Of a stretch of DNA of 64,000 bases, positions 6,264 through 62,386 are shown piece by piece. How positions within the stretch are numbered: the stretch's first letter is position 1; each line of letters begins with the position of its first letter. The stretch spans positions 985 through 64,984 of the forward strand of contig JAHISS010000087.1 in the NCBI GenBank assembly GCA_018817905.1, in the 5' to 3' direction. Below the pieces are notes generated by a model. The model had not been told where the DNA came from and ran no database searches. It saw nothing but the letters and a program-made list of their open reading frames with translations. The position numbers were made by a program, and so were the translations under genes. This stretch comes from Nanobdellota archaeon. GTDB lineage: Archaea; Nanobdellota; Nanobdellia; Pacearchaeales; GW2011-AR1.

Positions 6264-6394
6264 TTTAGAAGTTTATAACATTTCGCTGGTTCAATCTGTT
6301 TCCTTATGTAACTTTTCCATTTAAGAAAATACCTGTCTTTTACCAACTGCTTACGCAACAATGTAGCCTGACTCTAATTTCATGAAAGAATAAA

Positions 6395-7085
6395 CGTAAA
6401 CTACCGAGGGCTAAAGCCCTCAGCGTTTTAAGTTGAAAAATCAACAATTCTTTTTTGCATATCTTCGACAAGTTTAGGGGCTGAAGCCCTTTCCCAATGC
6501 TTGTCTTGACAGTCTTCAATGTAGTGCTTCATCGTCTCTTTGTTCACAGCACCGACGCTGCGGTAGAAATGTCCTCCACTCCAAAACTTATTTCCCCACA
6601 GCTTGTTTTTGAAAAGAGAGCTAAAGTGTCTTCGCATCTTGAAAGAACTGTAACCTTTGATTTGTCTGACAAGTTCTATCTCGCTGACAAATCTTACATT
6701 CGCAACAAACAAATGCAAATGATCTGGTCCAAAATTGTATGCAACCAAAACAACTTTCAGTTCATTTAACTTTTCCAGAATGCATGCAAAAGTTAATTCT
6801 GCAACTTGCTCATCTCGAAAAATCTGTCTTCGAAAAGCAGGAGTTAGCTGAATGTGAAAGTTGCTTTCACCGATAGCATTACTGCTCAGAATCAATTCCT
6901 TTTCCATTTTCACCTCCCGTAAGATTTAATTACGAGCAAGGCTACAGCTAACTGCTACGTGCAATGAGCTACAACCAGCTCATTGCTTATGTTCATTCAG
7001 ATTAGAAAAATATTACTGACTCGCTTTTGCGTCGTTGAAATTCAATCCGAGGGTTAAAACCTCACAGGGTTTCTTTCAACTGGCT
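6395..7085 (-). mobile_element. IS200/IS605-family insertion sequence (tnpA only); boundaries approximate
   Basis: Y1 transposase gene flanked by related subterminal hairpins CCGAGGGCTAAAGCCCTCA (6404-6422) and CCGAGGGTTAAAACCTCA (7047-7064). A perfect 10-bp stem hairpin GCAATGAGCT-acaacc-AGCTCATTGC (6961-6986) sits just upstream of tnpA. Confidence 0.6.
6428..6913 (-). CDS. tnpA: IS200/IS605-family Y1 (HUH) transposase TnpA
   Basis: 161 aa. FHIQLTPAFRRQIF, HUH motif DHLHLFV, IKGYSSFKMRRHF, and catalytic-Tyr region FWSGGHFYRSVG..ETMKHYIEDCQ. Confidence 0.85.
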   Translation of the reverse strand: MKMEKELILSSNAIGESNFHIQLTPAFRRQIFRDEQVAELTFACILEKLNELKVVLVAYNFGPDHLHLFVANVRFVSEIELVRQIKGYSSFKMRRHFSSLFKNKLWGNKFWSGGHFYRSVGAVNKETMKHYIEDCQDKHWERASAPKLVEDMQKRIVDFST

Positions 7086-7312: not shown

Positions 7313-7380
7313 GATAGTCGTCTGGTTTATGAGATAATCATTTGGTGCTGGTGGTGGAACATATTTTTATTCAAGATAAT
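7313..7380 (+). repeat. dispersed intergenic repeat, copy A (about 70 nt)
   Basis: GTCGTCTGGTTTATGAGATAATCAT (7317-7341) is identical over 25 nt to 33951-33975. The following TATTTTTATTCAAGATAAT parallels TATTTTTGTTTAAGATAAAT in the other copy. Confidence 0.8.
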
Positions 7381-7772
7381 TATTTCCCAGAAACCAAAAT
7401 TTCCCCGCCGGCTTTTTTAACTTTGTCAATTGCCGAACTTGAAGCTGCGGACGCTTTTATTGTCAGCTTTTCCTTTACTTCGCCAAGTCCGAGAATCTTG
7501 TAACCCTTGAGTTCGATTTCTTTTTTACCTTTGAACTTTTCCACCAGGTCTCTCAAGTTTATTGTTTTCAGTTTTTTAGAGGGTTCTTTTCTCAAAGTTT
7601 TGTCTTTTCCAAAAGGATATTTGATTAAATTCTTTTTCTGGTCTGCTCGTTTTCCAGTTCCTGCTTTTCCAACTCCTCCCCTGTTTCCAGAACCTCTGGC
7701 TTTTTTCTTAAATCCTCTTGCAGCTGTGTGCGAACCGCGATGCCTTGTGTTTTTCTTTCTTTTTTTATTCAT
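7380..7772 (-). CDS. rpl15: 50S ribosomal protein uL15
   Basis: 130 aa. MNKKRKKNTRHRGSHTAARGFKKKARGSGNRGGVGKAGTGKR is the uL15 N-terminal signature. Last gene of the cluster. Confidence 0.92.
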   Translation of the reverse strand: MNKKRKKNTRHRGSHTAARGFKKKARGSGNRGGVGKAGTGKRADQKKNLIKYPFGKDKTLRKEPSKKLKTINLRDLVEKFKGKKEIELKGYKILGLGEVKEKLTIKASAASSSAIDKVKKAGGEILVSGK

Positions 7773-7947
7773 CTTCTTCCTCTGGCTGCATTGCTAAAAC
7801 ATTTTCAGCTTCTTTTTTTTCAATCATATCTTCTGGAACTTTAGCAAAACTTTCAATTGCCTGGCATTCCTCGCATTCTTGCGGAGGATACTGGCCGTAT
7901 TCGACGTTTCCGCATTCGCATTCCCACATGAAACCGTCTTTTGACAT
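7765..7947 (-). CDS. small zinc-ribbon protein (60 aa) inserted between uL30 and uL15 (insert 13)
   Basis: WECECGNVEYGQYPPQECEECQ gives a CxC...CxxC knuckle pair, followed by an acidic tail. Start overlaps the uL30 stop (1 nt) and the end overlaps the uL15 start (8 nt). Confidence 0.6.
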   Translation of the reverse strand: MSKDGFMWECECGNVEYGQYPPQECEECQAIESFAKVPEDMIEKKEAENVLAMQPEEEDE

Positions 7948-8369
7948 TACAACATCCTCCTAACCAAATCATTTATTTTCTCTTTGTTGTCTCCGAGAAC
8001 TGCCTTGCTGCTTGTTCCGAAATGTTTCTTTGAGTCTATTCCTCCTCTTGGCGGATGCAGCCTGAAAAAAGATTTTAAGCCTAAATCGTTCAATGATTTT
8101 TTGGCTAATCCTTCAACAATTTTCTCAGCGCTGATTTTATCTCCAGCTTTAATCGGTTGGCCTCTTTCCTTTATTAGTTGAACAAGAGTTTCTTTGTCTA
8201 TTGTTCCGTATGCGACATAGCTCCTTATTTTTTTTAAGAGTTTCAGATTTTCTTTAGTTGGCGCAAGAAGAACTGCAGAATACTTTCTTCTAAGTTTAAT
8301 TCTGAACAGGGTTTCTGTTACTTCCTTTGGAATTTCTACTTGGCCTGATATTCTTATTGTTAAAATCAT
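7947..8369 (-). CDS. rpl30: 50S ribosomal protein uL30
   Basis: 140 aa. ILTIRISGQV..TLFRIKLRRKYSAVL and FRLHPPRGG are archaeal uL30 hallmarks. Confidence 0.92.
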   Translation of the reverse strand: MILTIRISGQVEIPKEVTETLFRIKLRRKYSAVLLAPTKENLKLLKKIRSYVAYGTIDKETLVQLIKERGQPIKAGDKISAEKIVEGLAKKSLNDLGLKSFFRLHPPRGGIDSKKHFGTSSKAVLGDNKEKINDLVRRML

Positions 8370-9187
8370 TATGTCCTCATCTTTGTTGTTTTTTCAAGAG
8401 CATTGACGCATGCTTTTGCTAAATTGAAAGTTGTTTTTGTTTGTCCCTGCGTTTTTGTGTAGGCGTCTTTGATTCCTGCGAGTTTAAGGATTTTTTTGCA
8501 TTCGTCTCCTGTGACCAAGCCGGTTCCGCGAGGCGCTGGCCAGAGAGTAATTTTTACACTGCCTGATTTTCCCTGAACTTTGAACGGAACTGTGTGGGGA
8601 ATGCTGTCTTCTTTTTCATCTTCTGGAGATTCAAAACCAAGGTTAATTTTTATGAGGTTTAGTTTTGAGTTCCTAACTGCTTTTTCCCTTGCTGGCAGGG
8701 TTTCGCTTGCCTTGCCAAAACCAACTCCAACATGTCCTTTTTTATCTCCAGCAACTGCCATTGCAGAAAATGAAACAACATTTCCCTCCTGGGTTTTCTT
8801 TTGCGTTTGCCTCCACGCTCTTCTCTTGCCTCCGCCAAATTTTCCCTTTGCCTGACCAATTAAAATCAGGTCTGTCTCAATATTCAAAAGCGAATCAACA
8901 ATTTCTGATTCTAAAATCTTTTTTCCTTTTTCTAAAATCTTGTCAATGTCTTTTTCTTTTTTTTCTTTTACTAATCTTCCAAGATTGGTTTTTGGAACCC
9001 ATGCAGCTAACAGCACCTTAGGATCTTCCCTCTGAAATCTCCCATCTCTCCGGCCGTATTGTTTTTTTGAATTTTCTGTTTTTTCTGGCTCTTCTGTTTT
9101 TTCTGTTTCTTTCTCTAACTTTACAACTTCTTCTGGTGTTGCTTCAACAAGATCTTTTGGTTCGTTTTTTGTTTCTTTTTCTGCCAT
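8369..9187 (-). CDS. rps5: 30S ribosomal protein uS5 with Lys/Glu-rich N-terminal extension
   Basis: 272 aa. Core GKRRAWRQTQKKTQEGNVVSFSAMAVAGDKKGHVGVGFGKA and WPAPRGTGLV. The first 45 aa or so are a KE-rich extension. Confidence 0.92.
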   Translation of the reverse strand: MAEKETKNEPKDLVEATPEEVVKLEKETEKTEEPEKTENSKKQYGRRDGRFQREDPKVLLAAWVPKTNLGRLVKEKKEKDIDKILEKGKKILESEIVDSLLNIETDLILIGQAKGKFGGGKRRAWRQTQKKTQEGNVVSFSAMAVAGDKKGHVGVGFGKASETLPAREKAVRNSKLNLIKINLGFESPEDEKEDSIPHTVPFKVQGKSGSVKITLWPAPRGTGLVTGDECKKILKLAGIKDAYTKTQGQTKTTFNLAKACVNALEKTTKMRT

Positions 9188-9188
9188 T

Positions 9189-9509
9189 TTATTTTCCGTG
9201 CCTCCTTAATACTGCGTCTCTTTCTGAATGTCCTTCATCCTTAGGGCCATAGCCCCTATCTCGATTCGGATGTAAAAACGTTACTTTTCCATTATGTATT
9301 GGGTAGGAAATAACATCAATTGCTTGAGTTCCAGGGACCCTTCTAAGAAATCTTGCTCTTTCCGAATGACTCCTATAATTTCCTTCATGTGTCTCACTAA
9401 AAAACAATTCCAATTCTGATCCTTGATCGGGCTGAACTAACACCCTATCTTCAGACACGAGGTTTCTTGCCTTTAACGTTTGGCTTGATTTTATTTCTAA
9501 AGTTGCCAT
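9189..9509 (-). CDS. hypothetical protein interleaved in r-protein operon (insert 12, 106 aa, uL18|uS5 junction)
   Basis: 1-nt spacers on both sides. Its own SD AAGGAGGT lies in the last uL18 codons. Its last codons AAGGAGGCACGGAAAATAA supply the SD for uS5. Arg 12 vs Lys 5. No family recognised. Confidence 0.65.
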   Translation of the reverse strand: MATLEIKSSQTLKARNLVSEDRVLVQPDQGSELELFFSETHEGNYRSHSERARFLRRVPGTQAIDVISYPIHNGKVTFLHPNRDRGYGPKDEGHSERDAVLRRHGK

Positions 9510-9510
9510 T

Positions 9511-9984
9511 TTATAACTTTTCCTTTACCTCCTTAAAGATACTTTTAAGCTTTTCGTTAGCTTCAATTCTTTCTGTTTTTGGCAAGGTGCTTTCTTTATG
9601 CGGGATTTTCAAACCAGCGTCTATTGCTCCTTTTACAAGTGCGTAGATTCTTGAACCGTGAATGTTTCTGTTCAGACCGAAATCTAAAATCGCTTCGTTG
9701 ACTTTTGTCTTTATGTTTTTTACTAGGAGGAATCCGGTTAAGTAAGCGGCTGGAAGAGATTTCAAACTTCCTGATTTTTCTTTTGGCCAACCTTTTTCAA
9801 GGAGTTCCTGCGAGCTCGCCTTTGCTACAACTTTGTCCTGAGCTATTTGCGATTCAACAATCTGAGCGATAATGTAATGATTTGTTTTTCTTACGACTAA
9901 GCGCGGTTTTTCTGACTTCAACATTGTAAATCTTGCTTTGTAGTCTGTTTTTGCTTGTTTTCGGCGACGTTTTAGAGTTTTCAC
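9511..9984 (-). CDS. rpl18: 50S ribosomal protein uL18
   Basis: 157 aa. RRRKQAKTDYKARFTMLKSEKPRLVVRKTNHYIIAQIV is the uL18 signature. Confidence 0.92.
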   Translation of the reverse strand: MKTLKRRRKQAKTDYKARFTMLKSEKPRLVVRKTNHYIIAQIVESQIAQDKVVAKASSQELLEKGWPKEKSGSLKSLPAAYLTGFLLVKNIKTKVNEAILDFGLNRNIHGSRIYALVKGAIDAGLKIPHKESTLPKTERIEANEKLKSIFKEVKEKL

Positions 9985-10397
9985 TTTTCTTCCTCCTGCA
10001 TTTCAGCTAACCTTTCTTTCATGTGAGCCAAACTTCTGAAGTCTGAGGCCCGGATTTCTTTCCGCAATTTGTAATAATCTTCCAGCGAAATTTTCTTTCT
10101 CTTCTTCAAGTTTGAAAGATAAGTTCTTAATTTTCTCGTCATAGTAACATAATCTTGTTTTCTTGTCTTCACTGTTTTCTTTACTGAACCAGCACGTCTT
10201 CTTGTTTTTCTTTTTTTGATTTTTCTCCGTCCCTTTTTTTCCTCTATGAAAATCGCGCCAGATTCTTTCAAATCTTTCATGTCTTGTTTTGTTATTGCTT
10301 CTTTTAATTCTGCCAAGCGCGCGGTGTTGAAAGAGATTCTGTTCTTTCCTGTCTTTAACGCCCTTGCAGCTAACTCTTTTTTCTTTTCAAGTTTCAT
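9981..10397 (-). CDS. rpl19e: 50S ribosomal protein eL19
   Basis: 138 aa. KKELAARALKTGKNRISF...ITKQDMKDLKESGAIFIEEKKGRRK is typical eL19. Confidence 0.92.
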   Translation of the reverse strand: MKLEKKKELAARALKTGKNRISFNTARLAELKEAITKQDMKDLKESGAIFIEEKKGRRKIKKRKTRRRAGSVKKTVKTRKQDYVTMTRKLRTYLSNLKKRKKISLEDYYKLRKEIRASDFRSLAHMKERLAEMQEEEK

Positions 10398-10696
10398 GCT
10401 GTCCCCCGATGTTGTTCGACGAATTCTGAAACTGTCTTAAATTCAGGATGTGTTTCAGGAATTCTGCTCGTTGAAGTAAGGGATGGTTCTAAAACATCTA
10501 AGCCCGATAAATTATAAACACTTCTTAAAAATGCTAACTGACCCTCCACTGGGACTGGTTTTGGATCAATTATTTCTACAACCGTTCCCTTGGTTTTATA
10601 CACTAATCCTTTTGGGATCCTTTGACAAAAAACTTTTTCTCCAGGGTGATAAGATCCTCTAACTTTCAGTTCCCTTGGTCTTGTTTGCGTTGTCAT
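10394..10696 (-). CDS. hypothetical protein interleaved in r-protein operon (insert 11, 100 aa, eL32|eL19 junction)
   Basis: ATGA overlaps with the eL32 stop and the eL19 start. Begins MTTQT. Ends ..ACAGCATGA. No family recognised. Confidence 0.65.
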   Translation of the reverse strand: MTTQTRPRELKVRGSYHPGEKVFCQRIPKGLVYKTKGTVVEIIDPKPVPVEGQLAFLRSVYNLSGLDVLEPSLTSTSRIPETHPEFKTVSEFVEQHRGTA

Positions 10697-11043
10697 TTCT
10701 TCTCCCCCTTAACATTTAAAATTTTTATTTTCTTTTCAGTTGCTTCTTTTATAAGCTCCAACTTTTTCTTTGCTCCGACTTTTGCGAGAATTGCTCCCTG
10801 GTTTTTTCCCAAATCGTTTAGTTCTTTTCTGTTGTGGACTAAAACAACTTGGAGATTTTGGATTTTTCCTGCTTGTTTTTTTGGTTTTTTGTATCCAACT
10901 GAAACTGTTTTTGCATGACCATGCATGTTTAGCCTCATCTTACTGTCGCGGCCCTTTGGTCTTCGCCATTTTTGCAGTTTCTTTCTTCGCTTTCCGATTC
11001 TTGAATGTCTGTCTGCTTCCTGCCTGATGAATTTTTTTTTCAT
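10693..11043 (-). CDS. rpl32e: 50S ribosomal protein eL32
   Basis: 116 aa. FIRQEADRHSRIGKRRKKLQKWRRPKGRDSKMR is the eL32 signature. Confidence 0.92.
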   Translation of the reverse strand: MKKKFIRQEADRHSRIGKRRKKLQKWRRPKGRDSKMRLNMHGHAKTVSVGYKKPKKQAGKIQNLQVVLVHNRKELNDLGKNQGAILAKVGAKKKLELIKEATEKKIKILNVKGEKK

Positions 11044-11585
11044 TATAATCCCCTCCCTGGTTTTGAAACCAAGTGAATACCGTCTTGGAAAATTCTTCGG
11101 TCCCTGCCTCGAACCTTGGTAGCTTTTTCAATATTTGCCATTGTTTTTCCTGCAGCTTCTCGGTCATTAGAAGAAATAGTTACCTTCTGCCCCTTAATTT
11201 GAACTTCGACATTTGGAAAAATTTTTGCATGTCTTGGAGTTTTCTCCCCTAAAAAATTGTTTATTGCGAGTTGATTTCCTTCGACTTTCAAAGTCATCGG
11301 AAAATGAACATTCACTGCCTCTAACTCGTAAACAAACTTCTCTCCTAAACCTCTAAAAAGATTTTTGATGTGCGCGATTTGCGACTTGATGATTTTGTAT
11401 TGGTTTTTGTTTCCTTTTTTACAACTGATGACAATTTCGTTTCCCTGAAGTTGTATTTCTATCTGCGGAATGTTCATATCTCTTGAAATTGAATCAGAAC
11501 CCTTTGTGCAAGTTAGTTTTTTATTTTCATAAGTGCAAGAAATGCCTTCGGGTATTTCAACTTTTTCTAGGATTTGGTGTTTCAT
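11043..11585 (-). CDS. rpl6: 50S ribosomal protein uL6
   Basis: 180 aa. Two-domain uL6 pattern: VEIPEGIS..., HFPMTLKVEGNQLAINNFLGEK, RGRDRRIFQDGI. Confidence 0.92.
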   Translation of the reverse strand: MKHQILEKVEIPEGISCTYENKKLTCTKGSDSISRDMNIPQIEIQLQGNEIVISCKKGNKNQYKIIKSQIAHIKNLFRGLGEKFVYELEAVNVHFPMTLKVEGNQLAINNFLGEKTPRHAKIFPNVEVQIKGQKVTISSNDREAAGKTMANIEKATKVRGRDRRIFQDGIHLVSKPGRGL

Positions 11586-11586
11586 C

Positions 11587-11952
11587 TTATGCTGCGCTCC
11601 TATCTTTCTTACAGGATAATTCTAAAACTGCTTGATAGGGTTTATAGAAACGTTCACGAACAATTTCAATTAATGGTTTGTAATAATCTGGAAAAACAGG
11701 TCTTTCTGTTTTTGGATTAATGCCATATTTTCTAAAATCTGATTGGGCCAAGGGCATGGCTTCAAAAGCTGTGTGATACTCTCTCATCAAAACGTTTGTT
11801 TTACCAGGGTTGCCAATTACCTGTTCTGCCCTGTCTAAATGTGTATGTATAAAATTTGCAACAACTAAAAATTTAGCCATGTCTCCGCTTATAGCCCGTT
11901 GTTCCCAAAGTTTTCCTATTGTGACAAGAGAAGGATTTAATTTTTTAGCCAT
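11587..11952 (-). CDS. hypothetical protein interleaved in r-protein operon (insert 10, 121 aa, uS8|uL6 junction)
   Basis: 1-nt spacers to the uS8 stop and the uL6 start. Ends AGCGCAGCATAA. No family recognised. Confidence 0.65.
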   Translation of the reverse strand: MAKKLNPSLVTIGKLWEQRAISGDMAKFLVVANFIHTHLDRAEQVIGNPGKTNVLMREYHTAFEAMPLAQSDFRKYGINPKTERPVFPDYYKPLIEIVRERFYKPYQAVLELSCKKDRSAA

Positions 11953-11953
11953 C

Positions 11954-12328
11954 TTAATAAAAATAAGCTATCAAGCTTCCTCCGATGTTTTTATCCTGGG
12001 CTGTTTGGTGAGTCATGAGTCCTTGCGATGTTGAAATGATTAAAAATCCGATGTTTTTTGCCGGCAGGTATCTCTTGACGTATTTTTCAATTTCGTCGAC
12101 TTTTACCATGAAGCGCGGCTTGATTGCGTTGCAGTTGTTTAATTTTCCAAGTTCAATCTTTAGGTTTGTTTTGTCGGTTTTGTAACTTTTTACATATCCT
12201 TTTAATTTCGCGATTGCTAAAACAGAACTGAGAAGTTTTGAATGTCTTTTTACTTCTACGATTTCCTTTCCAGCTCTTCGGATGTTCATCATCTGGTTTA
12301 GCGCGTCTGCTACTACATCTTGTGACAT
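11954..12328 (-). CDS. rps8: 30S ribosomal protein uS8
   Basis: 124 aa. DVVADALNQMMNIRRAGKEIVEV and GGSLIAYFY are the uS8 termini. Confidence 0.92.
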   Translation of the reverse strand: MSQDVVADALNQMMNIRRAGKEIVEVKRHSKLLSSVLAIAKLKGYVKSYKTDKTNLKIELGKLNNCNAIKPRFMVKVDEIEKYVKRYLPAKNIGFLIISTSQGLMTHQTAQDKNIGGSLIAYFY

Positions 12329-12329
12329 T

Positions 12330-12560
12330 TTAACTATATTTTTTGAAGCCGATTTCTACTGCGATTTCTCGGAAGCAGTGTCGGCAGATGTTTAGATTAT
12401 ACTGATTGAGGTGAGCGCCGAAGCGACCGCATCTTTCGCATTTTCGCGCGGCGATTCCGGTCTTTCTTTCCTTCGGCTTGCAGTGCTTTAGGAACTTTTT
12501 CATAATTTCTGGTTTGTCCTTCAATTGCTTTGTTATTTTTTTCCAATCTGATGCTGTCAT
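12330..12560 (-). CDS. rps14: 30S ribosomal protein uS14 (zinc type)
   Basis: 76 aa. CERCGRFGAHLNQYNLNICRHCFRE is the Zn-ribbon uS14 core. Has an N-terminal extension relative to typical archaeal uS14. Confidence 0.88.
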   Translation of the reverse strand: MTASDWKKITKQLKDKPEIMKKFLKHCKPKERKTGIAARKCERCGRFGAHLNQYNLNICRHCFREIAVEIGFKKYS

Positions 12561-12862
12561 ATTGTGTCTGCCTCCAAGATTTCCTTAAACCTTTCGAATA
12601 TTTCCATTTCTTTTTCTCCACGCAAACAGTCTGGGTGCATTGTATAAACACTATCATCTCCATTCCTACGCGATATTGTTGAGCCATCGAATAATAATTT
12701 AAAATGCGTGGTGCCGAAAACTTCGATTGATCCTTTGTTGTTGCCTGGTTTAATAAATTGATGATATGGGTATTCTCCATCAACATATTTGAATCTTTCT
12801 CCAGAAGGTCTGACTGGATACCATTCGCCCATTGCCAACTTTGGTTTTGTTTGTGTTGTCAT
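12557..12862 (-). CDS. hypothetical protein interleaved in r-protein operon (insert 9, 101 aa, second ORF at the uL5|uS14 junction)
   Basis: ATGA overlaps at both ends. Begins MTTQT. Last codons CTTGGAGGCAGACACAATATGA carry the SD for uS14. No family recognised. Confidence 0.65.
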   Translation of the reverse strand: MTTQTKPKLAMGEWYPVRPSGERFKYVDGEYPYHQFIKPGNNKGSIEVFGTTHFKLLFDGSTISRRNGDDSVYTMHPDCLRGEKEMEIFERFKEILEADTI

Positions 12863-13215
12863 ATTCTCCTTTGTTCACTCCTTTCAACCATGGCATACAA
12901 ATCTTGAAAGCCTATTGTTCCTTCTTCAATACCCTCACATGGACAGATTTTTCGGATGCTGAAATTACTCCCTTGATCCACTGCTGCCCAATATAGGCGA
13001 AGATATTTTTTGCGAAGTATCTTATCTGTTTGTGCGAATAGTGCTCTTGCCCCGTCTGTATCGGCCACGGTTCCAACATAGTTATATCTAACCCGCCTAT
13101 CTGGGGAAACTATTATATCTCCTTCATGTATAATGGTAATATCTATGAGGGGATTTGCTACTACTACCGCATGTTCACGATGAATTAATGGGGTTGCCGC
13201 TGTCATCTCACTCAA
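12859..13215 (-). CDS. hypothetical protein interleaved in r-protein operon (insert 8, 118 aa, first ORF at the uL5|uS14 junction)
   Basis: 8-nt overlap with the uL5 end and ATGA overlap with insert 9. AAAGGAGAATATGA supplies the SD for insert 9. Arg 11 vs Lys 4. Confidence 0.65.
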   Translation of the reverse strand: MSEMTAATPLIHREHAVVVANPLIDITIIHEGDIIVSPDRRVRYNYVGTVADTDGARALFAQTDKILRKKYLRLYWAAVDQGSNFSIRKICPCEGIEEGTIGFQDLYAMVERSEQRRI

Positions 13216-13744
13216 CCTCTGTCTCGAAGTTTTCTTCGAGGAATTTAATTATTTCTTCAGGGGAAATTTTTTGTTTTTCTGGGAGTTTTCCTCTTTTGAT
13301 TTTTCTTCTCTTAACTCTTACTCCTGCTCTGATAAAACATGCAGTTACATTTAAACCTCTAATTCCAATTTCTCTTTGATATTCTATCCCGGGAATTTCA
13401 ATGTATTCATGGATTCCAAAAGAAAACGAGTTTTCTGCGATTTGCTTTTCGTCGAGCTCGTTGTCAACTGCGCCTAAAAGTTTTTTCAGGATTTCAAAAG
13501 CATGTTTTCCACGCAATGTCACTGATGTTCCAAGAGGTAAGTGCGGCTTCACTCCAAAGTCAGGAATTCTCCGCTTTGGTCCTGCCTTCATGATTTGCGC
13601 TTTTTTTCCTGAAATCATTTCCAAAAGTTTCTGCGACTTTTCAAGATTCGGACCTGTTGCTCCACAGCTAAGAACAACTTTCTCAAGTTTTACTTCTCTC
13701 ATTGGATTTTCTTTTTTTTCCTGGATTTGGGTTTGGGTTGTCAT
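13208..13744 (-). CDS. rpl5: 50S ribosomal protein uL5
   Basis: 178 aa. NPMREVKLEKVVLSCG..., RRIPDFGVKPHLPLGTSVTLRG, GIHEYIEIPGIEY. N-terminal MTTQTQIQEKKE precedes the usual start; an alternative start is M15 at 13702. Confidence 0.92.
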   Translation of the reverse strand: MTTQTQIQEKKENPMREVKLEKVVLSCGATGPNLEKSQKLLEMISGKKAQIMKAGPKRRIPDFGVKPHLPLGTSVTLRGKHAFEILKKLLGAVDNELDEKQIAENSFSFGIHEYIEIPGIEYQREIGIRGLNVTACFIRAGVRVKRRKIKRGKLPEKQKISPEEIIKFLEENFETEVE

Positions 13745-14013
13745 CTTTGTCCTCCCGGACCTCTGAAATAAGCATTCGTAAATTGAATTAGTAAAATACT
13801 GTAAAGTCTCTCCATTGCATTAACTAAACCGAGATATGCCTCTTGATTCGGTGGCGATGCCAGGGTTCTTCTCATTTCTCCAAAACGTTGATTAATTCTG
13901 TCCCTTGCTGCGAAAAAACCTTTAATGTTATTTCCTTCTTCGGCATATCTTCTTTGTTCGCTTACATCTTTCAATACTTCTTCTGTGAAAGATGCGATTT
14001 TTGCTAAACTCAT
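13741..14013 (-). CDS. hypothetical protein interleaved in r-protein operon (insert 7, 90 aa, eS4|uL5 junction)
   Basis: ATGA overlaps with the eS4 stop and the uL5 start. Last codons GGTCCGGGAGGACAAAGATGA carry the SD for uL5. Arg 10 vs Lys 3. Confidence 0.65.
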   Translation of the reverse strand: MSLAKIASFTEEVLKDVSEQRRYAEEGNNIKGFFAARDRINQRFGEMRRTLASPPNQEAYLGLVNAMERLYSILLIQFTNAYFRGPGGQR

Positions 14014-14630
14014 AGCGCCACCACCTGCTGTCTTTCCAAAACAGTTTCTTTATCTTTGAGCTGTATCTTTGCCTTGCTTCCTTCGACAGAAATTATTTTT
14101 CCCTTGTTCCCAATATATTTTCCAGCAATTATGAAACAGTTCTTTGTTTTTTCCAAGGGAACGTGTTTTGTTATTTTTCCAGAAAAGTCGAGATAAACTG
14201 TGTCCTGCGTGTTTATTTTCCTGTCTTCTGAAAGAACGTTGGAACCGTCGTGCAAGTTCAATTGGGTTTTGTTTCCCTTTAATATTTTTTTGTCTATCAC
14301 TTTGCAGATTCTTTCCTTGTCTTTTGTTTTTTCAAATGTGAACTTTCCATTTGCCGTGAAAGTCAAAACATAAGATTCTCCTGCTTCGAAAACGTTGAAG
14401 AGCCGAATTGAATCTCTGTAATCTTTAATTTCTTTTCCGTTGAGTTTTAGCAATTTTTGTTTTATCATTTCTCTTACTTCTTTTGCTGTTGTCGCGAGGT
14501 TTAACATGTTCCGGACAGCTACGACGACGGGAACCGAGTTTTCCAAATCAACTAAAGACCTAGCTATGTATCTGGTTCCTTTTCTTTCTATTGGAATTTT
14601 TTTTGTTAGCTTAGCTCTTGTTTGGTACAT
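14010..14630 (-). CDS. rps4e: 30S ribosomal protein eS4
   Basis: 206 aa. KLTKKIPIERKGTRYIARS...VVVAVRNMLNLATTAKEVREMI is typical eS4. Confidence 0.92.
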   Translation of the reverse strand: MYQTRAKLTKKIPIERKGTRYIARSLVDLENSVPVVVAVRNMLNLATTAKEVREMIKQKLLKLNGKEIKDYRDSIRLFNVFEAGESYVLTFTANGKFTFEKTKDKERICKVIDKKILKGNKTQLNLHDGSNVLSEDRKINTQDTVYLDFSGKITKHVPLEKTKNCFIIAGKYIGNKGKIISVEGSKAKIQLKDKETVLERQQVVAL

Positions 14631-15021
14631 TTTTCTTTTCCTTTGATTTGTTTAAAGCAGATATTCTTTTTTTGTCTTCTAAGTTTAAAGTTTGAATCTG
14701 CAACGAACTTGGATGGAACCAGACGCTGACTTTTGTTCCGTCTTTTTTTGTCCGCTGGATGTTTTCCAAAGCAATTCTTGTTCTTTTCAAATCAATTGTG
14801 ATGACTTTTGCTTTTTTCTTCTTGAACGAACCGCGCATGACAAGCACTTCATCATTCTTCCTGATTGGAATGCTTTTCTTGCCGTGCTTTTTCCTTAATT
14901 CTTTTGAAAGCTGGGCGCTTAAAAACTTATGCTTTGTGTGAAGCGGCGCGTTAGCTAAGTATTTTCGCTGCTTGCGAGGCTGCTTCGAAGATTTCCATTG
15001 GGTTGAGAATTTGTTTTTCAT
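14611..15021 (-). CDS. rpl24: 50S ribosomal protein uL24
   Basis: 136 aa. SKQPRKQRKYLANAPLHTKHKFLSAQLSKELRKKHG..IPIRKNDEVLVMRGSFKKKKAKV (KOW motif). 20-nt overlap with the eS4 start. Confidence 0.92.
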   Translation of the reverse strand: MKNKFSTQWKSSKQPRKQRKYLANAPLHTKHKFLSAQLSKELRKKHGKKSIPIRKNDEVLVMRGSFKKKKAKVITIDLKRTRIALENIQRTKKDGTKVSVWFHPSSLQIQTLNLEDKKRISALNKSKEKKNVPNKS

Positions 15022-15022
15022 T

Positions 15023-15322
15023 TTATGCTGCAGTCCCGCTACTTCTAATGAAATGACTAACTACTATAAGTTGGATTTCCAAGGCATTTTGAAGGTGCCC
15101 GTTAATTTCCCTTAAATGATTAACATTTGAAACATCTATGTTTTCGACAATGGCTAAGTGTTCACCAATTCTCTCATTATAATACCTTGCTCCCACTGTA
15201 TTACCAGATATTATTGCAGTCGCTAATTCATCTACGTAGCGCTTAAGAGCTTGGCTGGACCTTTTAGCCACTAAATAATTCCTTCTTTCAGAATCCTGAC
15301 TTAATCTAATTGTTGTATTCAT
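15023..15322 (-). CDS. hypothetical protein interleaved in r-protein operon (insert 6, 99 aa, uL14|uL24 junction)
   Basis: Track ORF 15023-15385 trimmed to the ATG at 15322 (MNTTIRLS...), 1 nt after the uL14 stop. 1-nt spacer to the uL24 ATG. Ends ACTGCAGCATAA. Arg 9 vs Lys 2. Confidence 0.6.
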   Translation of the reverse strand: MNTTIRLSQDSERRNYLVAKRSSQALKRYVDELATAIISGNTVGARYYNERIGEHLAIVENIDVSNVNHLREINGHLQNALEIQLIVVSHFIRSSGTAA

Positions 15323-15323
15323 T

Positions 15324-15749
15324 TTACAAAACATACTGAGCAATCTTGGCGACAGATGGCCAACGCTCCTGAACCTCCCTTGCAACTGGACCTTTAATTT
15401 GAGTTCCTTTTGGATTGCCTTTGTCGTCTTTCATTAAGGCTACGGCGTTGTCTTCGAAGCAGACTCTCTCACCTGTTAGTCTCCGGTAAGGTTTCTTTTG
15501 GCGGATTACAACTGCATCAAACACTTGGCCTTTCATGTCCGGCTTTCCTTTTCTGACAGAGACTTTTACCCAGTCCGATATTTTAGCATACTGCTGTCTT
15601 TTCTTTGTTGTTTTTCCGCCTTTTACTCCTGTGATTCTGACAATTCTCGCGCCGCTGTTGTCTGAAGCAAGAACCTGACTGCCAATGTTTAAACCGCGCG
15701 TTGCTCTTGCACTAATCGCCTTTCCGAATATTTTTTTTGATTTTGTCAT
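15324..15749 (-). CDS. rpl14: 50S ribosomal protein uL14
   Basis: 141 aa. GLNIGSQVLASDNSGARIVRITGVKG...FEDNAVALM is the uL14 signature. Confidence 0.92.
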   Translation of the reverse strand: MTKSKKIFGKAISARATRGLNIGSQVLASDNSGARIVRITGVKGGKTTKKRQQYAKISDWVKVSVRKGKPDMKGQVFDAVVIRQKKPYRRLTGERVCFEDNAVALMKDDKGNPKGTQIKGPVAREVQERWPSVAKIAQYVL

Positions 15750-16057
15750 TATTCGATTTCCTCCAAAGCTTTCTTAATTAAAGGATAAAGCGGATGACGC
15801 CTGTTTGCCCAGTAATGATTGTGACTCTTCTGAACAGAAGAGAACGTTCCATTTGGAAAAAGGACAAAACTATAAACCGGAATACAGCCAATAGTGTGGA
15901 AATTCTCCGTGTCCACTACGATAAGACTCCCGTCTTCCATGCCTGCGTATCGTCCTTCTATCCCTGAAGCCTCTCCGATAACTACATTATCTCCAATCTT
16001 AGTGTTTCTCGCATCTTCTGCTGTTCTTACTAACAATGCGGGTCTTCGTGGACTCAT
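15749..16057 (-). CDS. hypothetical protein interleaved in r-protein operon (insert 5, 102 aa, uS17|uL14 junction); weak Rpp29-like motif
   Basis: ATGA overlap with the uS17 stop and TAATG overlap with the uL14 start. GCTTTGGAGGAAATCGAATAATG supplies the uL14 SD. KIGDNVVIGEASGIEGR...IPVYSFVLFPNG loosely recalls the Rpp29 Sm-like pattern (LIGxxVxV..GIEGxVVDET..IPK..xFxF). This assignment is not secure. Confidence 0.6.
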   Translation of the reverse strand: MSPRRPALLVRTAEDARNTKIGDNVVIGEASGIEGRYAGMEDGSLIVVDTENFHTIGCIPVYSFVLFPNGTFSSVQKSHNHYWANRRHPLYPLIKKALEEIE

Positions 16058-16398
16058 TCTCCCCCTCCCTCTTTTTTCCTAATCTTCTCAACAACAATGA
16101 AATGAATCATCTTGCTCAATGGCCTGCATTCCTGGACTTTGATTAAATCACCAATATGGATTTCATGGGCAAGTTCTTCTGGCAAACGGGCGTGGATTCT
16201 TGTTTTCTTTTTGAGAAAGCGCTCGTATTTTTTAATTTTAACTGTGCGCTCGAATTCTATGGCGACTCGGGTTGGGAATTTCCTTGTGACAACTCCTTGA
16301 AAAATCCTGCCGCGGGTTGAGACTTTAGTTCTGACTAAGTTTTCTGTTTTCTTTTTTGTGGATTTCTCTATCTGTTTTTTCTTTGACGTTTCTGTCAT
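16054..16398 (-). CDS. rps17: 30S ribosomal protein uS17
   Basis: 114 aa. GRIFQGVVTRKFPTRVAIEFERTVKIKKYERFLKKKTRIHA..IGDLIKVQECRPLSK is the uS17 OB-fold signature. Confidence 0.92.
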   Translation of the reverse strand: MTETSKKKQIEKSTKKKTENLVRTKVSTRGRIFQGVVTRKFPTRVAIEFERTVKIKKYERFLKKKTRIHARLPEELAHEIHIGDLIKVQECRPLSKMIHFIVVEKIRKKEGGGE

Positions 16399-16424
16399 TT
16401 TCTCTTTGCTTTGCGATGTGCGAG

Positions 16425-16721
16425 TTAATCGCTGATGGACTCTTCGGGAAAGCCTAGCTTCACAAGAATCGGCCGGAGCTTTTTCTTGTGGTCGCCTTGC
16501 AGTTCGATGACGCCGTTTTTAGACGTGCCGCCGCATGCCAGTTCTTCTTTCAGGCGTTTTCCTGTTGCCTTGATGTCCACGTGTTTGTCAAACCCCTCGA
16601 CAAGTGTTATTTTTTTTCCGTATCTCCTTGTCTCGGTGCGCACTTTTATGTGCTGTTCGCTTTTAGCGATTTCTTCAAACACATCGGTTTCTGTTGGTAA
16701 ACCGAATTCGTTTGAATCCAT
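16425..16721 (-). CDS. sui1: translation initiation factor aIF1 (SUI1)
   Basis: 98 aa. IKVRTETRRYGKKITLVEGF...LKEELACGGTSKNGVIELQGDHKKKL is the SUI1 signature. Confidence 0.9.
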   Translation of the reverse strand: MDSNEFGLPTETDVFEEIAKSEQHIKVRTETRRYGKKITLVEGFDKHVDIKATGKRLKEELACGGTSKNGVIELQGDHKKKLRPILVKLGFPEESISD

Positions 16722-16942
16722 TATTTCTTTTTCAACCCATCCTCTTTCAAGGATTTGTTGAATTTTTCTGATTTCATGAATGTATTTAATCGTGAAATTG
16801 CCCTTTTAATCTCTTTGGTTTTAGCATTTGTCTTGTTTGCAGCGACATTTGCTCTGACCAGTTCCATTTTCAAATCTTTTAACTTGCTATCTCTCTCCCT
16901 TGCTGTCATCTTTGCTATTTCTTTTGATTTTAGGATTGCCAT
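16721..16942 (-). CDS. rpl29: 50S ribosomal protein uL29
   Basis: 73 aa. ILKSKEIAKMTARERDSKLKDLKMELVRANVAANKTNAKTKEIKRAISRLNT is typical uL29. Confidence 0.9.
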   Translation of the reverse strand: MAILKSKEIAKMTARERDSKLKDLKMELVRANVAANKTNAKTKEIKRAISRLNTFMKSEKFNKSLKEDGLKKK

Positions 16943-16948
16943 TTTATG

Positions 16949-17254
16949 CTATTGAACCTCCCCAGGTATATTACTTCTCCTTCTTAGTTCAGTTAATTCT
17001 TGTTCTAACTCTCCTAATGAAGACATCAATTCTACTCTCATTTGACTGGGCGCTTTTTGTGATAAATGATCTGTGGGAATGCAGGGAAGTTCTTGGCTAA
17101 TGAATTGATACACCTCTACATCCAAACTTGCCAATTGGTCAAGGAGTCCTGAATATCCTGGCAAGCCAACAGTTTGAACACCTTGCACTCTCTTTGTAAG
17201 ACTCTGGGTTTGTTTATAGAGTTCTTCGTATACTTCTCGGCCTTGTGCAATCAT
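16949..17254 (-). CDS. hypothetical protein interleaved in r-protein operon (insert 4, 101 aa, uS3|uL29 junction)
   Basis: ATGA overlap with the uS3 stop. Last codons GGGGAGGTTCAATAG give the SD for uL29, 6 nt downstream. Gln/Leu/Glu-rich and helical-looking. Confidence 0.62.
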   Translation of the reverse strand: MIAQGREVYEELYKQTQSLTKRVQGVQTVGLPGYSGLLDQLASLDVEVYQFISQELPCIPTDHLSQKAPSQMRVELMSSLGELEQELTELRRRSNIPGEVQ

Positions 17255-17973
17255 TCTTTTTCCTCCTCAACTTTCTTAGGCGCTTTCTTTTTGACTGTCT
17301 TCTTATCTGTCTTTTTCTTAACTTCGGTTTCTTCTTGCTGGTTCATTTCTTCTAAAGTAACCTTTATTTTTTGTCTGAGAGCTTCATCAATTTTTATTTG
17401 GTCGTGAAGTTCTGCTTCTGGTCTGAGAATAGCGACTTTGACACCGACAACTCCGGCGATTGTTGTTGCCTGGCTTTGGGCCCTGTTGACTACTTTTGCG
17501 GTATCGCCGGTTTTTTTCAAATAACCCTGGGTGAATCTCCAGGTTCTGGCTCTGTCGCTTGGCAGTTTTCCTGACAAAACAATTTCTGTTCCTAAAGCTC
17601 CTGCTTTCATTATCTGTTGTAATGTTCTGTAAGCGATAACTTTGAATTTTAATGAGCCTCTTCTTTCAAGTAACAAAGCGATGTCATCTGCAACTAATTG
17701 CGCGTCAAGCACTGGCTGCGTAATTTCTACAATTTCAATGTGCGGATTGTCGAGGTTGAATCTTTTTTTAAGTATTCTTGTCAGCTCGTCTATTTTTTCG
17801 CCTTTCCTTCCAATTACTAATCCTGGACGCGAAGTGAAAACTTTTATTTTTTCTCCTACTGGCGTATACTCAATGCTGACGTCGCTGATTTTTCCCTTCC
17901 CCAAACTATTTTTGATGTAATCTCTTACTCTGAACTCATCTTTCTTAAACGCGACAAATCTTTTTTCTTCCAT
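17251..17973 (-). CDS. rps3: 30S ribosomal protein uS3 with Lys/Glu-rich C-terminal tail
   Basis: 240 aa. KH-domain region PGLVIGRKGEKIDELT and GALGTEIVLSGKLPSDRARTWRF. The last 40 aa or so are a KE-rich tail. Confidence 0.92.
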   Translation of the reverse strand: MEEKRFVAFKKDEFRVRDYIKNSLGKGKISDVSIEYTPVGEKIKVFTSRPGLVIGRKGEKIDELTRILKKRFNLDNPHIEIVEITQPVLDAQLVADDIALLLERRGSLKFKVIAYRTLQQIMKAGALGTEIVLSGKLPSDRARTWRFTQGYLKKTGDTAKVVNRAQSQATTIAGVVGVKVAILRPEAELHDQIKIDEALRQKIKVTLEEMNQQEETEVKKKTDKKTVKKKAPKKVEEEKE

Positions 17974-17974
17974 T

Positions 17975-18415
17975 TTATGCGAAAACCTCCCTTAGCACTC
18001 TTAAAGCGTTATCTCTTTTTTTCCAATCTGGGTTCGTTACTCTGAGATAAGACCTGCCGTGACCTTCATCAGTAAAATGTTCTACGGTGCAATCTCTCAC
18101 ATGATAAATAAGGGAGGTTGAATCATGATATGCGCTATGATCTGGACTTGTAATGGGGGCACTAAAGTCTGTATCGCCAAAGCAGAGTATAATCGGATTA
18201 TCAATTCTGCGTTGAGGACTGGCTAATTTGGCTAATGCATTTCCTAAGTTTGCATTAGCACTTGTCACAAATTCTAACATTTCATGCATTTCAGGAAAAT
18301 CCCCCGCATCAAAGATATATAAATCAAACTCGTCGTCTCTGGCTGAACCGATTTTCCATTCAAACCCCCCAATACGATTTTGTCCAATTAACTTTTGTTG
18401 TGTTGCTTTTGCCAT
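17975..18415 (-). CDS. hypothetical protein interleaved in r-protein operon (insert 3, 146 aa, uL22|uS3 junction)
   Basis: Start overlaps the uL22 stop (TAATG). Last codons GGGAGGTTTTCGCATAA supply the SD for uS3, 1 nt downstream. Asp/His-rich (DHSAYHDSTSLIYH, HFTDEGHG). No family recognised. Confidence 0.65.
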   Translation of the reverse strand: MAKATQQKLIGQNRIGGFEWKIGSARDDEFDLYIFDAGDFPEMHEMLEFVTSANANLGNALAKLASPQRRIDNPIILCFGDTDFSAPITSPDHSAYHDSTSLIYHVRDCTVEHFTDEGHGRSYLRVTNPDWKKRDNALRVLREVFA

Positions 18416-19029: not shown

Positions 19030-19030
19030 T

Positions 19031-19447: not shown

Positions 19448-19448
19448 T

Positions 19449-20150: not shown

Positions 20151-20151
20151 T

Positions 20152-20499
20152 TTATTCTCTTCTTCTAAGATTTACTTCTACCATGTCATCAAACAACTCC
20201 TTGTATCTTACATCACTTTGGTCTAAGGTGATATATCTACCACCAAGAGTTGTAACTATTCCATTCTTCCCAAATCTAAGCCCATTTTCAGACACGATAA
20301 ATAAATAAATGGAATCTCTTGTGCGTGGGAAAGCAAACGAGAAGTCTCCTTCTTCTGAACCTCGATATTGGGCTAGTGTTCCCCCAGCAGACAAGCCATA
20401 GCCGTCTATTCTTACTACTTTTTTAACCGCCCGATGCAGCTCATCTAAACTATTTACTTGTGTCTCTATATCTTCTATATCCCTTGCTTCTTGTGCCAT
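20152..20499 (-). CDS. hypothetical protein interleaved in r-protein operon (insert 2, 115 aa, uL23|uL2 junction)
   Basis: Start overlaps the uL23 stop (TAATG). 1-nt spacer to the uL2 ATG. Arg 12 vs Lys 4. No family recognised. Confidence 0.65.
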   Translation of the reverse strand: MAQEARDIEDIETQVNSLDELHRAVKKVVRIDGYGLSAGGTLAQYRGSEEGDFSFAFPRTRDSIYLFIVSENGLRFGKNGIVTTLGGRYITLDQSDVRYKELFDDMVEVNLRRRE

Positions 20500-21524: not shown

Positions 21525-21812
21525 CTAAATATATTGAATATTTCCCCCTGCTTCCAATCTTGCAGATATTTCTGGAATGGACTCAAGGGTTCCAACCCTT
21601 TCGACTGTTTTTCCAGTTTCTGATTCATAAACTCGAGTTAGATAGTCACATGAAGCTAAAACATGAACTCGCATAATCACTAATCTGTCATCAAGTGTCT
21701 GCGCTTTTTCACAATCGCCATTTTCTCTAGCACCCTTAGCAGCCTTTCTAAATAAGTCATGCTTTTTCTTCCAATAAATTACTCTTTCTGCAGCTTTTTT
21801 TAATTCGCTCAT
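21525..21812 (-). CDS. hypothetical protein interleaved in r-protein operon (insert 1, 95 aa, uL3|uL4 junction)
   Basis: 1-nt spacer after the uL3 stop and 4-nt spacer before the uL4 ATG. SD GGAGGT lies within the last uL3 codons. No family recognised. Confidence 0.62.
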   Translation of the reverse strand: MSELKKAAERVIYWKKKHDLFRKAAKGARENGDCEKAQTLDDRLVIMRVHVLASCDYLTRVYESETGKTVERVGTLESIPEISARLEAGGNIQYI

Positions 21813-61951: not shown

Positions 61952-62386
61952 TTATTCTTTTTTCTTTGGAGGATGTGCTTTGAGGCGGTCTTGGATGTCT
62001 TCTAATCGTTCCTCCGCTACATCTGTAAGACAGAGGTTTGCTACCCATCCTAAAAGCTTCCCCGCGACATAAAGGGCAGCGCCCGCATTTGCATATGGTC
62101 TAAGAGATTCTGGCACGATTGTGTTAGCAAGAGTAAATAGCCCTCCTGTTTTAAGTAACCCTTCTCCTAACGATAACCACATGTACTTGTTAAATCTTTC
62201 AGTTCTTTTCTCTGCCCTATCCTCAACTTCTCCTAAATCTAATTCTGCATTAAGCCTATTCCCTAAATCATCAAGTTTTCTTCCAACAGTTTCGTCAACT
62301 AAACCACCAATTGGAGATTCACTGCCGCAACGCGGACAATATCCATTTCTATTTTGTGTTGCTGGGTCGTATTGTGTTTGTGTCAT
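61952..62386 (-). CDS. hypothetical protein with N-terminal Zn-knuckle and a hydrophobic hairpin (144 aa)
   Basis: Begins MTQTQ. CPRCGSE. Hydrophobic GGLFTLANTIV..AGAALYVAGKLLGWVANL. No family recognised. Confidence 0.5.
   Translation of the reverse strand: MTQTQYDPATQNRNGYCPRCGSESPIGGLVDETVGRKLDDLGNRLNAELDLGEVEDRAEKRTERFNKYMWLSLGEGLLKTGGLFTLANTIVPESLRPYANAGAALYVAGKLLGWVANLCLTDVAEERLEDIQDRLKAHPPKKKE

Follow-up and report, generated by a model that had tools for sequence, protein, structure and literature searches.

What does it mean when three cistrons of one ribosomal-protein operon open with the same pentapeptide? The question is raised by a 64,000-nt stretch of contig JAHISS010000087.1 from a Nanobdellota archaeon (hereafter the window), in which a ribosomal-protein operon of the archaeal S10-spc type runs on the minus strand from uL3 to uL15 (7380-22755). 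Interleaved with its ribosomal-protein genes are 13 additional open reading frames (ORFs) of 60-146 aa, here called inserts and numbered I1-I13. Inserts I11 and I9 and the ribosomal protein uL5 all start with MTTQT, and a sequence-only reading had proposed that these starts, together with near-identical 3' ends of several inserts, were either remnants of a common insertion or recombination junction or a convergent optimum for re-initiation. In our best reading, no single recombination site left its scar in the three MTTQT starts. We favour, at a probability of roughly 0.45, an explanation in which MTTQ(T) and an end made of GCA and a stop codon serve inserted, coupled cistrons as start and end modules, either inherited or copied and then kept for translational restart, with the uL5 tail reaching the same sequence. 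The features that carry the shared start are as follows.

10683..10696, minus strand: MTTQT start of I11, ATGACAACGCAAAC, overlapping the eL32 stop as AAATGA
12849..12862, minus strand: MTTQT start of I9, ATGACAACACAAAC, overlapping the I8 stop as TATGA and followed by a 20-nt run of A and C only
13731..13744, minus strand: MTTQT start of uL5, ATGACAACCCAAAC, overlapping the I7 stop as AGATGA
10394..10696, minus strand: I11, an orphan ORF of 100 aa at the eL32/eL19 junction, ending ACAGCATGA
12557..12862, minus strand: I9, an orphan ORF of 101 aa at the I8/uS14 junction
13208..13744, minus strand: uL5, 178 aa, with the N-terminal tail MTTQTQIQEKKE preceding the conserved NPMR motif
61952..62386, minus strand: an ORF starting MTQTQ (ATGACACAAACACAA), outside the operon and without stop/start coupling

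The recurrence proved to be real. The string ATGACAACNCAAAC had exactly three perfect matches in the 64 kb, all at minus-strand start codons, and the translations read earlier from I11 (MTTQTRPRELK) and from the other two cistrons (MTTQTKPKLAMG and MTTQTQIQEKKENPMREVK) are correct, as is the MTQTQ start of the fourth ORF outside the cluster. The overlap with the preceding stop needed a small amendment: all three starts share ATGA, with AAATGA at I11 and AGATGA at uL5, and I9 reads TATGA, unlike the earlier wording. With up to one mismatch allowed, ATGACAACNCAAAC gave four matches where 0.19 were expected, a count that no shuffled sequence out of 100 reached. Under position-specific residue frequencies derived from 88 insert starts in relatives, agreement at residues 2-5 among any three of the 37 cistrons had a probability of about 1.5e-4. 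The recurrence is thus not a composition effect. For comparison with relatives, 66 related loci (designated by L numbers below) were annotated against the window proteins. MTTQ starts were found in 2 of 1,150 background ORFs of these relatives; both were operon inserts, in two other genomes.

The starts stand in a shared setting. Cistron junctions of the operon are overlaps or very short gaps, mostly of 1 nt, with a few longer ones such as SUI1/uS17, and each insert, as read from its junctions, spans the upstream stop to the downstream start with an overlap or a gap of about 1 nt. A Shine-Dalgarno (SD) motif (GGAGG, GGGGG or AGGAG) lies 3-14 nt before nearly every start, inside the 3' end of the upstream ORF. 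Judged from this layout, the cistrons of the operon appear to be translationally coupled via their stop/start junctions, and termination-reinitiation with an intragenic SD motif is established in archaea (Huber et al. 2019, PMC6728339). The arrangement is no assembly artefact, since proteins identical to those of the window recur in three NCBI metagenome-assembled genomes (MAGs; one labelled 'Nanoarchaeota archaeon', KJ600_04290-04455) and in assemblies made from independent runs by JGI, ENA and Logan. Sequencing runs with this genome are SRR10598177, SRR27458548, SRR6514274, SRR27458547 and SRR10598175, and its source is a groundwater community. The nearest public genomes are DPANN archaea of the Woesearchaeota/Pacearchaeota type, with uL5 identities of 51-73%.

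At the nucleotide level, the starts of I9 and I11 matched at 16 of 18 and 21 of 24 positions, which placed the pair in the top three among 5,018 non-homologous insert pairs. The three differences within the 24 nt are all A/G transitions, after which the similarity stops abruptly. I9, I11 and uL5 are alike neither upstream of the ATG nor beyond 14-24 nt downstream of it, and the wobble base of codon 3 varies among them (ACA, ACG, ACC). The 14-mer ATGACAACNCAAAC itself occurred in none of 63 related loci. BLASTN and TBLASTX searches of the inserts against the window returned a sole match, a 22-nt 5' stretch shared by I9 and I11, so the inserts are no duplicates of local DNA. For I9 and I11, the description of the cistrons as otherwise unrelated ORFs was upheld: BLASTP gave no hit, a hidden Markov model (HMM) of the I11 family missed I9 (E > 10) and hhalign returned a probability of 3.7%. 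A common protein family or fold for the two was consequently rejected, there being no significant similarity beyond residue 8. AlphaFold models of both showed a beta-sheet with a C-terminal helix and a low-confidence N-terminal tail, and Foldseek found no significant neighbour of either model in the PDB. Because the predicted local distance difference test score (pLDDT) was below 50 for residues 1-4 of I11 and 1-7 of I9, the MTTQT peptide is probably not structural.

Relatives bear on the origin of each MTTQ start. The I11 family comprises four members, namely I11 of the window, L069 11260-11565, L030 786-1103 and L031 3752-4045. A full-length alignment of the four shows P7, R8, L10, Y16, G19, E20 and V22 to be conserved, and their N-termini read MTTQ-TRPRE (window), MTTQIQQPRE (L030), MAETQQPRV (L031) and MTAARIEPRE (L069). 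Since the window and the distant member in L030, which starts ATGACAACACAA, both have MTTQ, the motif is most simply ancestral in the family and L069 derived. In 5.8e9 clusters, I11 had only one relative (73% identical), and an exhaustive HMMER search over 1.84e9 representatives recovered only its own cluster. I9 had no relative in the 5.8e9 clusters. Its only detectable homologue, an insert of L035, occupies the same junction (uL5>uS14), is 27% identical across 70 aa (BLASTP E = 1e-4 in a pairwise comparison) and also starts ATGACAACACAA and thus with MTTQ.

For uL5, MTTQT had been taken as an extension preceding the normal start, a view that did not hold: a tail before NPMR is normal in the clade, where it measures 2-25 residues and is hypervariable (the [PV]M[RK] motif was locatable in 29 of 44 distinct relatives). 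A check of the uL5 orthologues in these 44 relatives found MTTQ in the window only. The tails of the nearest relatives read MTEQ (L069, L036), MTQK (L007), MSSQ, MSEQ, MKKQTK and MNQE. In uL5, MTTQT thus appears to be one local version of a hypervariable tail, separated from the tails of orthologues by few substitutions. The assignment of the gene as uL5 was confirmed by PF00281 (Ribosomal_L5) and PF00673 (L5_C), both above the gathering score, and by synteny, the gene lying between eS4 and uS14. The C-rich codons of its start (ACCCAAACCC) may pair with the GGGAGG SD motif. In E. coli, the L5 start is the site of uS8 autoregulation.

The remaining inserts of the window, to which the following comparisons refer, are these.

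21525..21812, minus strand: I1, an orphan ORF of 95 aa at the uL3/uL4 junction
20152..20499, minus strand: I2, an orphan ORF of 115 aa at the uL23/uL2 junction
17975..18415, minus strand: I3, 146 aa, at the uL22/uS3 junction, with the 3' end TTCGCATAA and a homologue at the same junction in L056
16949..17254, minus strand: I4, an orphan ORF of 101 aa at the uS3/uL29 junction
16940..16950, minus strand: AGCATAAAATG at the I4/uL29 junction, with GCATAA out of frame and the I4 stop, TAG, within it
15749..16057, minus strand: I5, an orphan ORF of 102 aa at the uS17/uL14 junction
15023..15322, minus strand: I6, an orphan ORF of 99 aa at the uL14/uL24 junction, ending ACTGCAGCATAA
13741..14013, minus strand: I7, an orphan ORF of 90 aa at the eS4/uL5 junction, starting MSLAK
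12859..13206, minus strand: I8, an orphan ORF of 115 aa whose start ATGACAGC (MTA) is the same 8 nt as the uS14 start
11587..11952, minus strand: I10, an orphan ORF of 121 aa at the uS8/uL6 junction, ending AGCGCAGCATAA
9189..9509, minus strand: I12, an orphan ORF of 106 aa at the uL18/uS5 junction, with ATAAAATGGCA on both sides
7765..7947, minus strand: I13, 60 aa with CxC..CxxC, at the uL30/uL15 junction, kept there in six genomes
3573-4970: secY, after uL15 and downstream of the operon

The start of I6 was revised to MNTT at a TAAAATG junction. None of the 13 inserts had a credible Pfam or PHROG match, and an Rfam scan of the window at gathering thresholds gave 0 matches. Clusters at 90% held a single sequence for every insert except I10, for which there were sequence variants, and I6, which had extra members of other lengths.

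Across the related loci, 101 distinct insert ORFs were found at 20 junctions in 32 loci; relative genomes held 0-9 each and the window, with 13, the most. Extra ORFs between ribosomal-protein genes are thus clade-wide, highly variable and mostly orphans. In the first five codons of these ORFs, A is over-represented, as is C at second codon positions, and G and T are scarcer than in the gene body. Runs of at least 8 nt made of A and C only followed 12 of the 101 start ATGs and none of 145 internal in-frame ATGs, the 20-nt run of I9 being the longest among the 101 inserts. The ATGA overlap in addition dictates that codon 2 begins with A. Beyond composition, insert starts resembled the starts of the genes that they precede: the mean shared prefix was 4.56 nt against 3.84 nt after permutation, a value reached in 0 of 5000 permutations (P < 0.0002), and shared prefixes of at least 8 nt numbered five against 0.85 expected (P = 0.0014). 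The clearest case is a 136-aa ORF at the uS19/uL22 junction of L056 (4346-4786), where 25 nt of the uL22 start, ATGGAACACGACGTAGAAATTAAAA, recur without a mismatch as a flanking duplicate; in the near-identical sister genome L023, the site is empty (position 5333) and the duplicate is missing. This pair is direct evidence of target duplication at insertion. In the same vein, an unrelated insert of L008 at the junction occupied by I8 also begins ATGACAGC, like uS14. Strict copying of the downstream start was nevertheless rejected as the cause of the window trio, because I7, which lies upstream of uL5, starts MSLAK. Neither composition nor start copying alone explains the trio.

The shared 3' ends were likewise found to be real. 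The string GCAGCATAA had three matches against 0.48 expected, two of which are the ends of I6 (15023-15031) and I10 (11587-11595). A C-terminal Ala was present in 16 of 101 inserts and 44 of 1,021 background ORFs, Ala-Ala-stop in seven of each set, and GCA followed by a stop in 15 inserts as compared with 22 background ORFs, an approximately 7-fold enrichment. Ends of the GCA-stop type occurred in 9 of the 20 inserts of the window and L069. The general 3' pattern is an SD motif (GGAG/GGGG), a few bases, (N)CA-GCA, a stop and (A)ATG, so that the shared peptide ends ..G/R-x-A are partly mere translation of SD motif and spacer. The GCATAA-type end acts as a nucleotide motif, because it is kept out of frame in I4 and with a mutated stop (TAA to TCA) in GCAGCATCAAAATGA of L054. 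Where unrelated inserts of the window and L069 occupy the same junction, the similarity resumes at CAGCATAAaatg on the right and stops a few bases from the ATG on the left. The 3' end of I7, GGAGGACAAAGATGA, is predicted from sequence to provide the SD motif and restart for uL5. This end is a second recurrent 3' module: an identical 15 nt (..GGQR*) was observed at window 13741-13755 and L007 8952-8966, on unrelated inserts at different junctions in different genomes.

Some of the inserts have also moved between genomes. The closest relative that we reached, L069, is a 22-kb ENA contig found via a variant of I10. Its ribosomal proteins are 60-89% identical to those of the window, with synonymous sites saturated (proportion of synonymous differences, pS, 0.49-0.81). 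I10, by comparison, is 96% identical in nucleotides (L069 10001-10366; pS 0.040; ratio of nonsynonymous to synonymous divergence, dN/dS, about 1.05) and I11 84% (L069 11260-11565; pS 0.205; dN/dS 0.66). Because synonymous sites are nearly unsaturated in these two inserts while those of the ribosomal genes are saturated, I10 and I11, at least, were exchanged horizontally, having moved between lineages long after the ribosomal genes diverged. The high-identity tract of I10 begins about 55 nt inside uS8, spans the insert and includes the initial 42 nt of uL6 without a mismatch (42/42), beyond which identity breaks down. In the 45 nt preceding I11, the window and L069 agree at 44 positions. Since the identity tracts extend some 40-55 nt into the flanking genes, the exchange probably took place by homologous recombination, with short conserved stretches of ribosomal genes as arms. 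The two loci otherwise differ in their inserts: I1, I3, I4, I7, I8, I9 and I12 are missing in L069, which carries unrelated ORFs in place of I2, I5 and I6 and one additional insert between uL4 and uL23. An insert family is also not tied to one junction. The I11 family is found at eL32>eL19 in the window and L069 and at uS14>uS8 in L030 and L031, and another family occurs at both uL14>uL24 and uS8>uL6. MTTQ accompanies the I11 family from one junction to the other. IMG/VR returned no viral relative of I10 or of the I11 family, and a viral origin was rejected for both.

Other inserts have longer histories. The homologue of I3 (L056 5391-5894, uL22>uS3 junction) lies in a distant genome (uL5 55% identical), which implies that some orphan inserts are old or were repeatedly acquired at the same site. 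I13 is acidic and zinc-ribbon-like, with synonymous sites saturated like those of ribosomal genes; it is vertically inherited and may be a lineage-specific ribosome-associated protein. Recognisable enzymes were also seen at junctions of relatives: a DEDD/DnaQ-like exonuclease at uL4/uL23 in three genomes, a MazG-like pyrophosphatase and, before uL15, a NUDIX hydrolase (enzyme inserts at L008 3540-4172, L023 2465-3115, L023 15114-15443 and L024 14086-14547). Toxin-antitoxin-like pairs flank the region of the window at 1881-2463 and 61345-61921 (PIN with MazE/AbrB-like; HicA with HicB-like).

We detected no att site, hairpin or recombinase that accounts for the pattern. Between 7300 and 22800, no inverted repeats or hairpins were detected at the insert ends, and the direct repeats of the operon were low-complexity A/T runs only. 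An IS200-like Y1 (HUH) transposase gene, tnpA, lies in the uL15/secY interval (6428-6913, minus strand; PF01797, E = 2.4e-22), flanked by hairpins at 6393-6434 and 6961-6986. The Y1 transposase was absent from every other insert-bearing related locus, and on this account it was dismissed as a general mobiliser. The operon-flanking ORFs that were scanned, a part of the window ORFs, yielded matches to PIN, MazE-like, methyltransferase and Y1_Tnp families and no integrase. In two relatives, a short element was observed in three copies at three ribosomal-gene junctions each (L024 5701-5817, 8368-8484 and 14544-14660; L018 120-230, 1805-1915 and 5595-5708). It measures 111-117 nt, can be read as a 36-38-aa ORF and is identical exactly from its ATG to the ATG of the next gene. 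The L024 copies hold hairpins and end GGAGG..TAA+ATG; the hairpins of L018 were judged by eye only. By its sequence this element looks like a miniature inverted-repeat transposable element (MITE) that would preserve the coupling.

How, then, might the shared termini have come about? We propose that the MTTQ(T) 5' module would be passed down within families of inserts, or acquired by copying when an arriving ORF adopts the opening codons of the gene that it displaces. It would then be retained by selection as a putative good restart site, with its ATGA overlap, a codon 2 starting with A and only A and C thereafter, and the unconstrained uL5 tail may have drifted to the same MTTQT solution. The GCAGCATAA-type end would be the matching 3' module, comprising an SD motif, one or two small-residue codons ending in GCA, a stop and the restart. 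Both earlier proposals are thereby retained in part, and neither suffices by itself. The idea of a junction remnant survives as a clade-wide effect of insertion junctions, but the window inserts have no single common junction, att-like repeat or hairpin. The re-initiation optimum agrees with the coupling, the SD motifs and the A/C-rich starts, but an independent-site model cannot give three identical pentapeptides. Several observations weigh against our proposal. The closest I11 orthologue, in L069, lacks the motif (MTAARIEP), and codons 2-7 are its most divergent stretch relative to the window; since this orthologue lost the motif, the constraint on MTTQ is not universal. The homology between I9 and the L035 insert is weak, and I9 escapes the I11-family HMM. 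The MTTQT cistrons of the window are not adjacent, as start copying would need, with I7 starting MSLAK, and other ATGA-coupled cistrons of the operon use quite different codons 2-5. Predicted local folding at the uL5 start (13725-13765) ranks with the strongest in the operon (-7.2 kcal/mol; mean -3.0 kcal/mol), a value that also leaves an unstructured start unsupported at uL5 as a single explanation. Finally, the preference for GCA before the stop is not accounted for.

Among the alternatives, pure convergence would have MTTQT arise three times independently as a re-initiation optimum, with Lys avoided in non-basic proteins and without shared history. Long A/C-only runs solely after true starts, the A/C-rich and G/T-poor beginnings and the ATGA overlap with an upstream SD motif in all three cistrons speak in its favour; the differing wobble base of codon 3 argues against recent copying, uL5 relatives with MTEQ, MTQK or MKKQT are few substitutions away, and MTQTQ occurs on an unlinked ORF. 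We nevertheless regard it as unlikely, since the independent-site model assigns about 1.5e-4 to a triple sharing residues 2-5, MTTQ common to diverged homologues in two insert families points to descent, seven other ATGA/GTGA-coupled operon cistrons do without MTTQT, and the preferred codons end in A, unlike ACG and ACC. A recent, genome-specific patch, in which gene conversion or partial duplication carried a 14-24-nt 5' segment among I9, I11 and uL5, would account for the 21 of 24 nt shared by I9 and I11 with A/G transitions only and an abrupt end, and for the absence of the 14-mer from all 63 related loci. It would also fit I11 itself, where codons 2-7 are the most divergent from L069 despite 44 of 45 identical nt upstream and look like a replaced patch. 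To such local copying we give little credence, because the start of L030 (ATGACAACACAA, MTTQIQQPRE) makes MTTQ more parsimoniously ancestral and L069 derived, the I9 homologue in L035 also has MTTQ, the wobble bases differ and nothing is alike upstream. Chance remains the least credible account by far. The coding strand of the operon is strongly A-rich, with ACA and CAA as common codons, but no shuffle reached the observed count, the positional model gave about 1.5e-4, and the MTTQ start recurs on inserts of two other genomes.

Two further explanations would assign the termini a dedicated role. In one of them, the 5' ATGACAAC.. and 3' GCAGCATAA are core sites of an integron- or transposon-like machinery. 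Unrelated inserts do occur at the same junctions with boundaries at ATG(+1-9 nt) and ..CAGCA-stop, GCAGCATAAAATG-like ends are found on non-homologous inserts of at least five genomes, the mini-elements of L024 and L018 occur three per operon with exact identity from ATG to TAA+ATG, and the window has a Y1 transposase between uL15 and secY. Yet the window inserts have neither inverted repeats nor hairpins, most inserts carry neither motif, the duplications span 3-25 nt, unlike a fixed target-site duplication, and none of the other insert-rich loci has the Y1 transposase. The I10 and I11 tracts run into the flanks, as homologous recombination expects, and selection for intact coupling of essential genes alone would give precise boundaries. 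A site-specific cassette system is on balance very improbable. The other explanation places the function in the peptides, MTTQT and the C-terminal Ala or Ala-Ala serving as protein signals (Met removal, N-terminal modification, stability or a degron). That the peptide is kept while codon 3 varies synonymously (ACA, ACG, ACC), that the termini are predicted to be disordered, as signals usually are, and that a C-terminal Ala is enriched (16/101 against 44/1,021) would suit this idea. GCATAA, however, is kept out of frame in I4 and with a mutated stop in L054, uL5 orthologues function with entirely different tails, and the I11 orthologue in L069 lacks MTTQT; moreover, we know of no signal of the MTTQT/C-terminal-Ala form in archaea. 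A function at the peptide level accordingly appears improbable.

The inserts resemble several known systems in part. Archaeal S10-spc clusters have long been known to hold extra ORFs, such as SUI1, an RNase P subunit and eS4/eL32/eL19 (once 'unknown'). I13, conserved in six genomes, behaves like these; the known extra ORFs are conserved across archaea, whereas 12 of the 13 inserts here are lineage- or genome-specific, some of them recently transferred. Integron cassettes are similar in being promoterless, co-oriented small ORFs without known function, often orphans, stacked in a strongly expressed array, variable and horizontally exchanged. In contrast, no attC hairpins were found at the insert ends of the operon, the inserts lie between essential genes with coupling, and the identity tracts suggest recombination through flanks. 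Like phage morons and free-standing selfish genes placed between conserved late-operon genes, the inserts are non-homologous extra genes at the same boundaries of syntenic conserved operons. Morons usually bring their own promoter and terminator; the window inserts leave no intergenic space, belong to a cellular ribosomal operon and had no viral relatives in our searches. From IS200/IS605 elements and MITEs, hairpins without target duplication would be expected, whereas the window inserts lack hairpins and several insertions show duplications of 8-25 nt. With termination-reinitiation pairs the inserts share the stop/start overlap or short gap and the SD motif in the end of the upstream ORF, but the known mechanism predicts neither a specific pentapeptide after the start nor GCA before the stop. 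In bacteria, there is an A bias at codon +2, and A/CA-rich codons after the start act as translation enhancers; Martin-Farmer and Janssen reportedly found in 1999 that downstream CA repeats enhance translation in E. coli. The pure A/C stretch ACA-ACN-CAA-AC and the start-proximal A/C enrichment of the 101 inserts are reminiscent of such enhancers, although that work concerns E. coli and does not explain the recurrence of the same five codons. In the searchable literature, we found no description of orphan ORFs inserted or exchanged within DPANN ribosomal-protein operons.

Taken alone, the motif is a modest curiosity on restart signals. A broader view, which we offer tentatively as a possibility, is that the ribosomal stop/start junctions of this DPANN clade may serve as landing pads that receive coupled ORF cassettes. 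Small orphan genes, and mini-ORFs with hairpins, would insert precisely at an essential gene's start codon, duplicate the first codons of that gene, restart it by an SD-plus-stop module and spread among deeply diverged lineages via conserved flanks. If this were true, MTTQ.. and ..GCAGCATAA would be conserved cassette termini, and MTTQ the fossil of a captured start of the uL5 or uS14 type. What is surprising, and where we see the novelty, is not the motif but the operon as a hot spot of coupled, horizontally exchanged orphan cistrons. This operon is the most conserved in cellular life and is usually seen as an inert set of markers; in this one archaeal clade it is a hot spot of orphan-gene gain, replacement and exchange, in which the inserts ride on ribosomal-protein expression. 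Here one can study in nature how small genes, whether new or selfish, get fixed in essential operons and leave them intact, and how conserved flanks can serve as homology arms between diverged genomes. Ribosomal-marker contigs of DPANN MAGs contain recombinant segments, which matters for marker phylogeny and binning.

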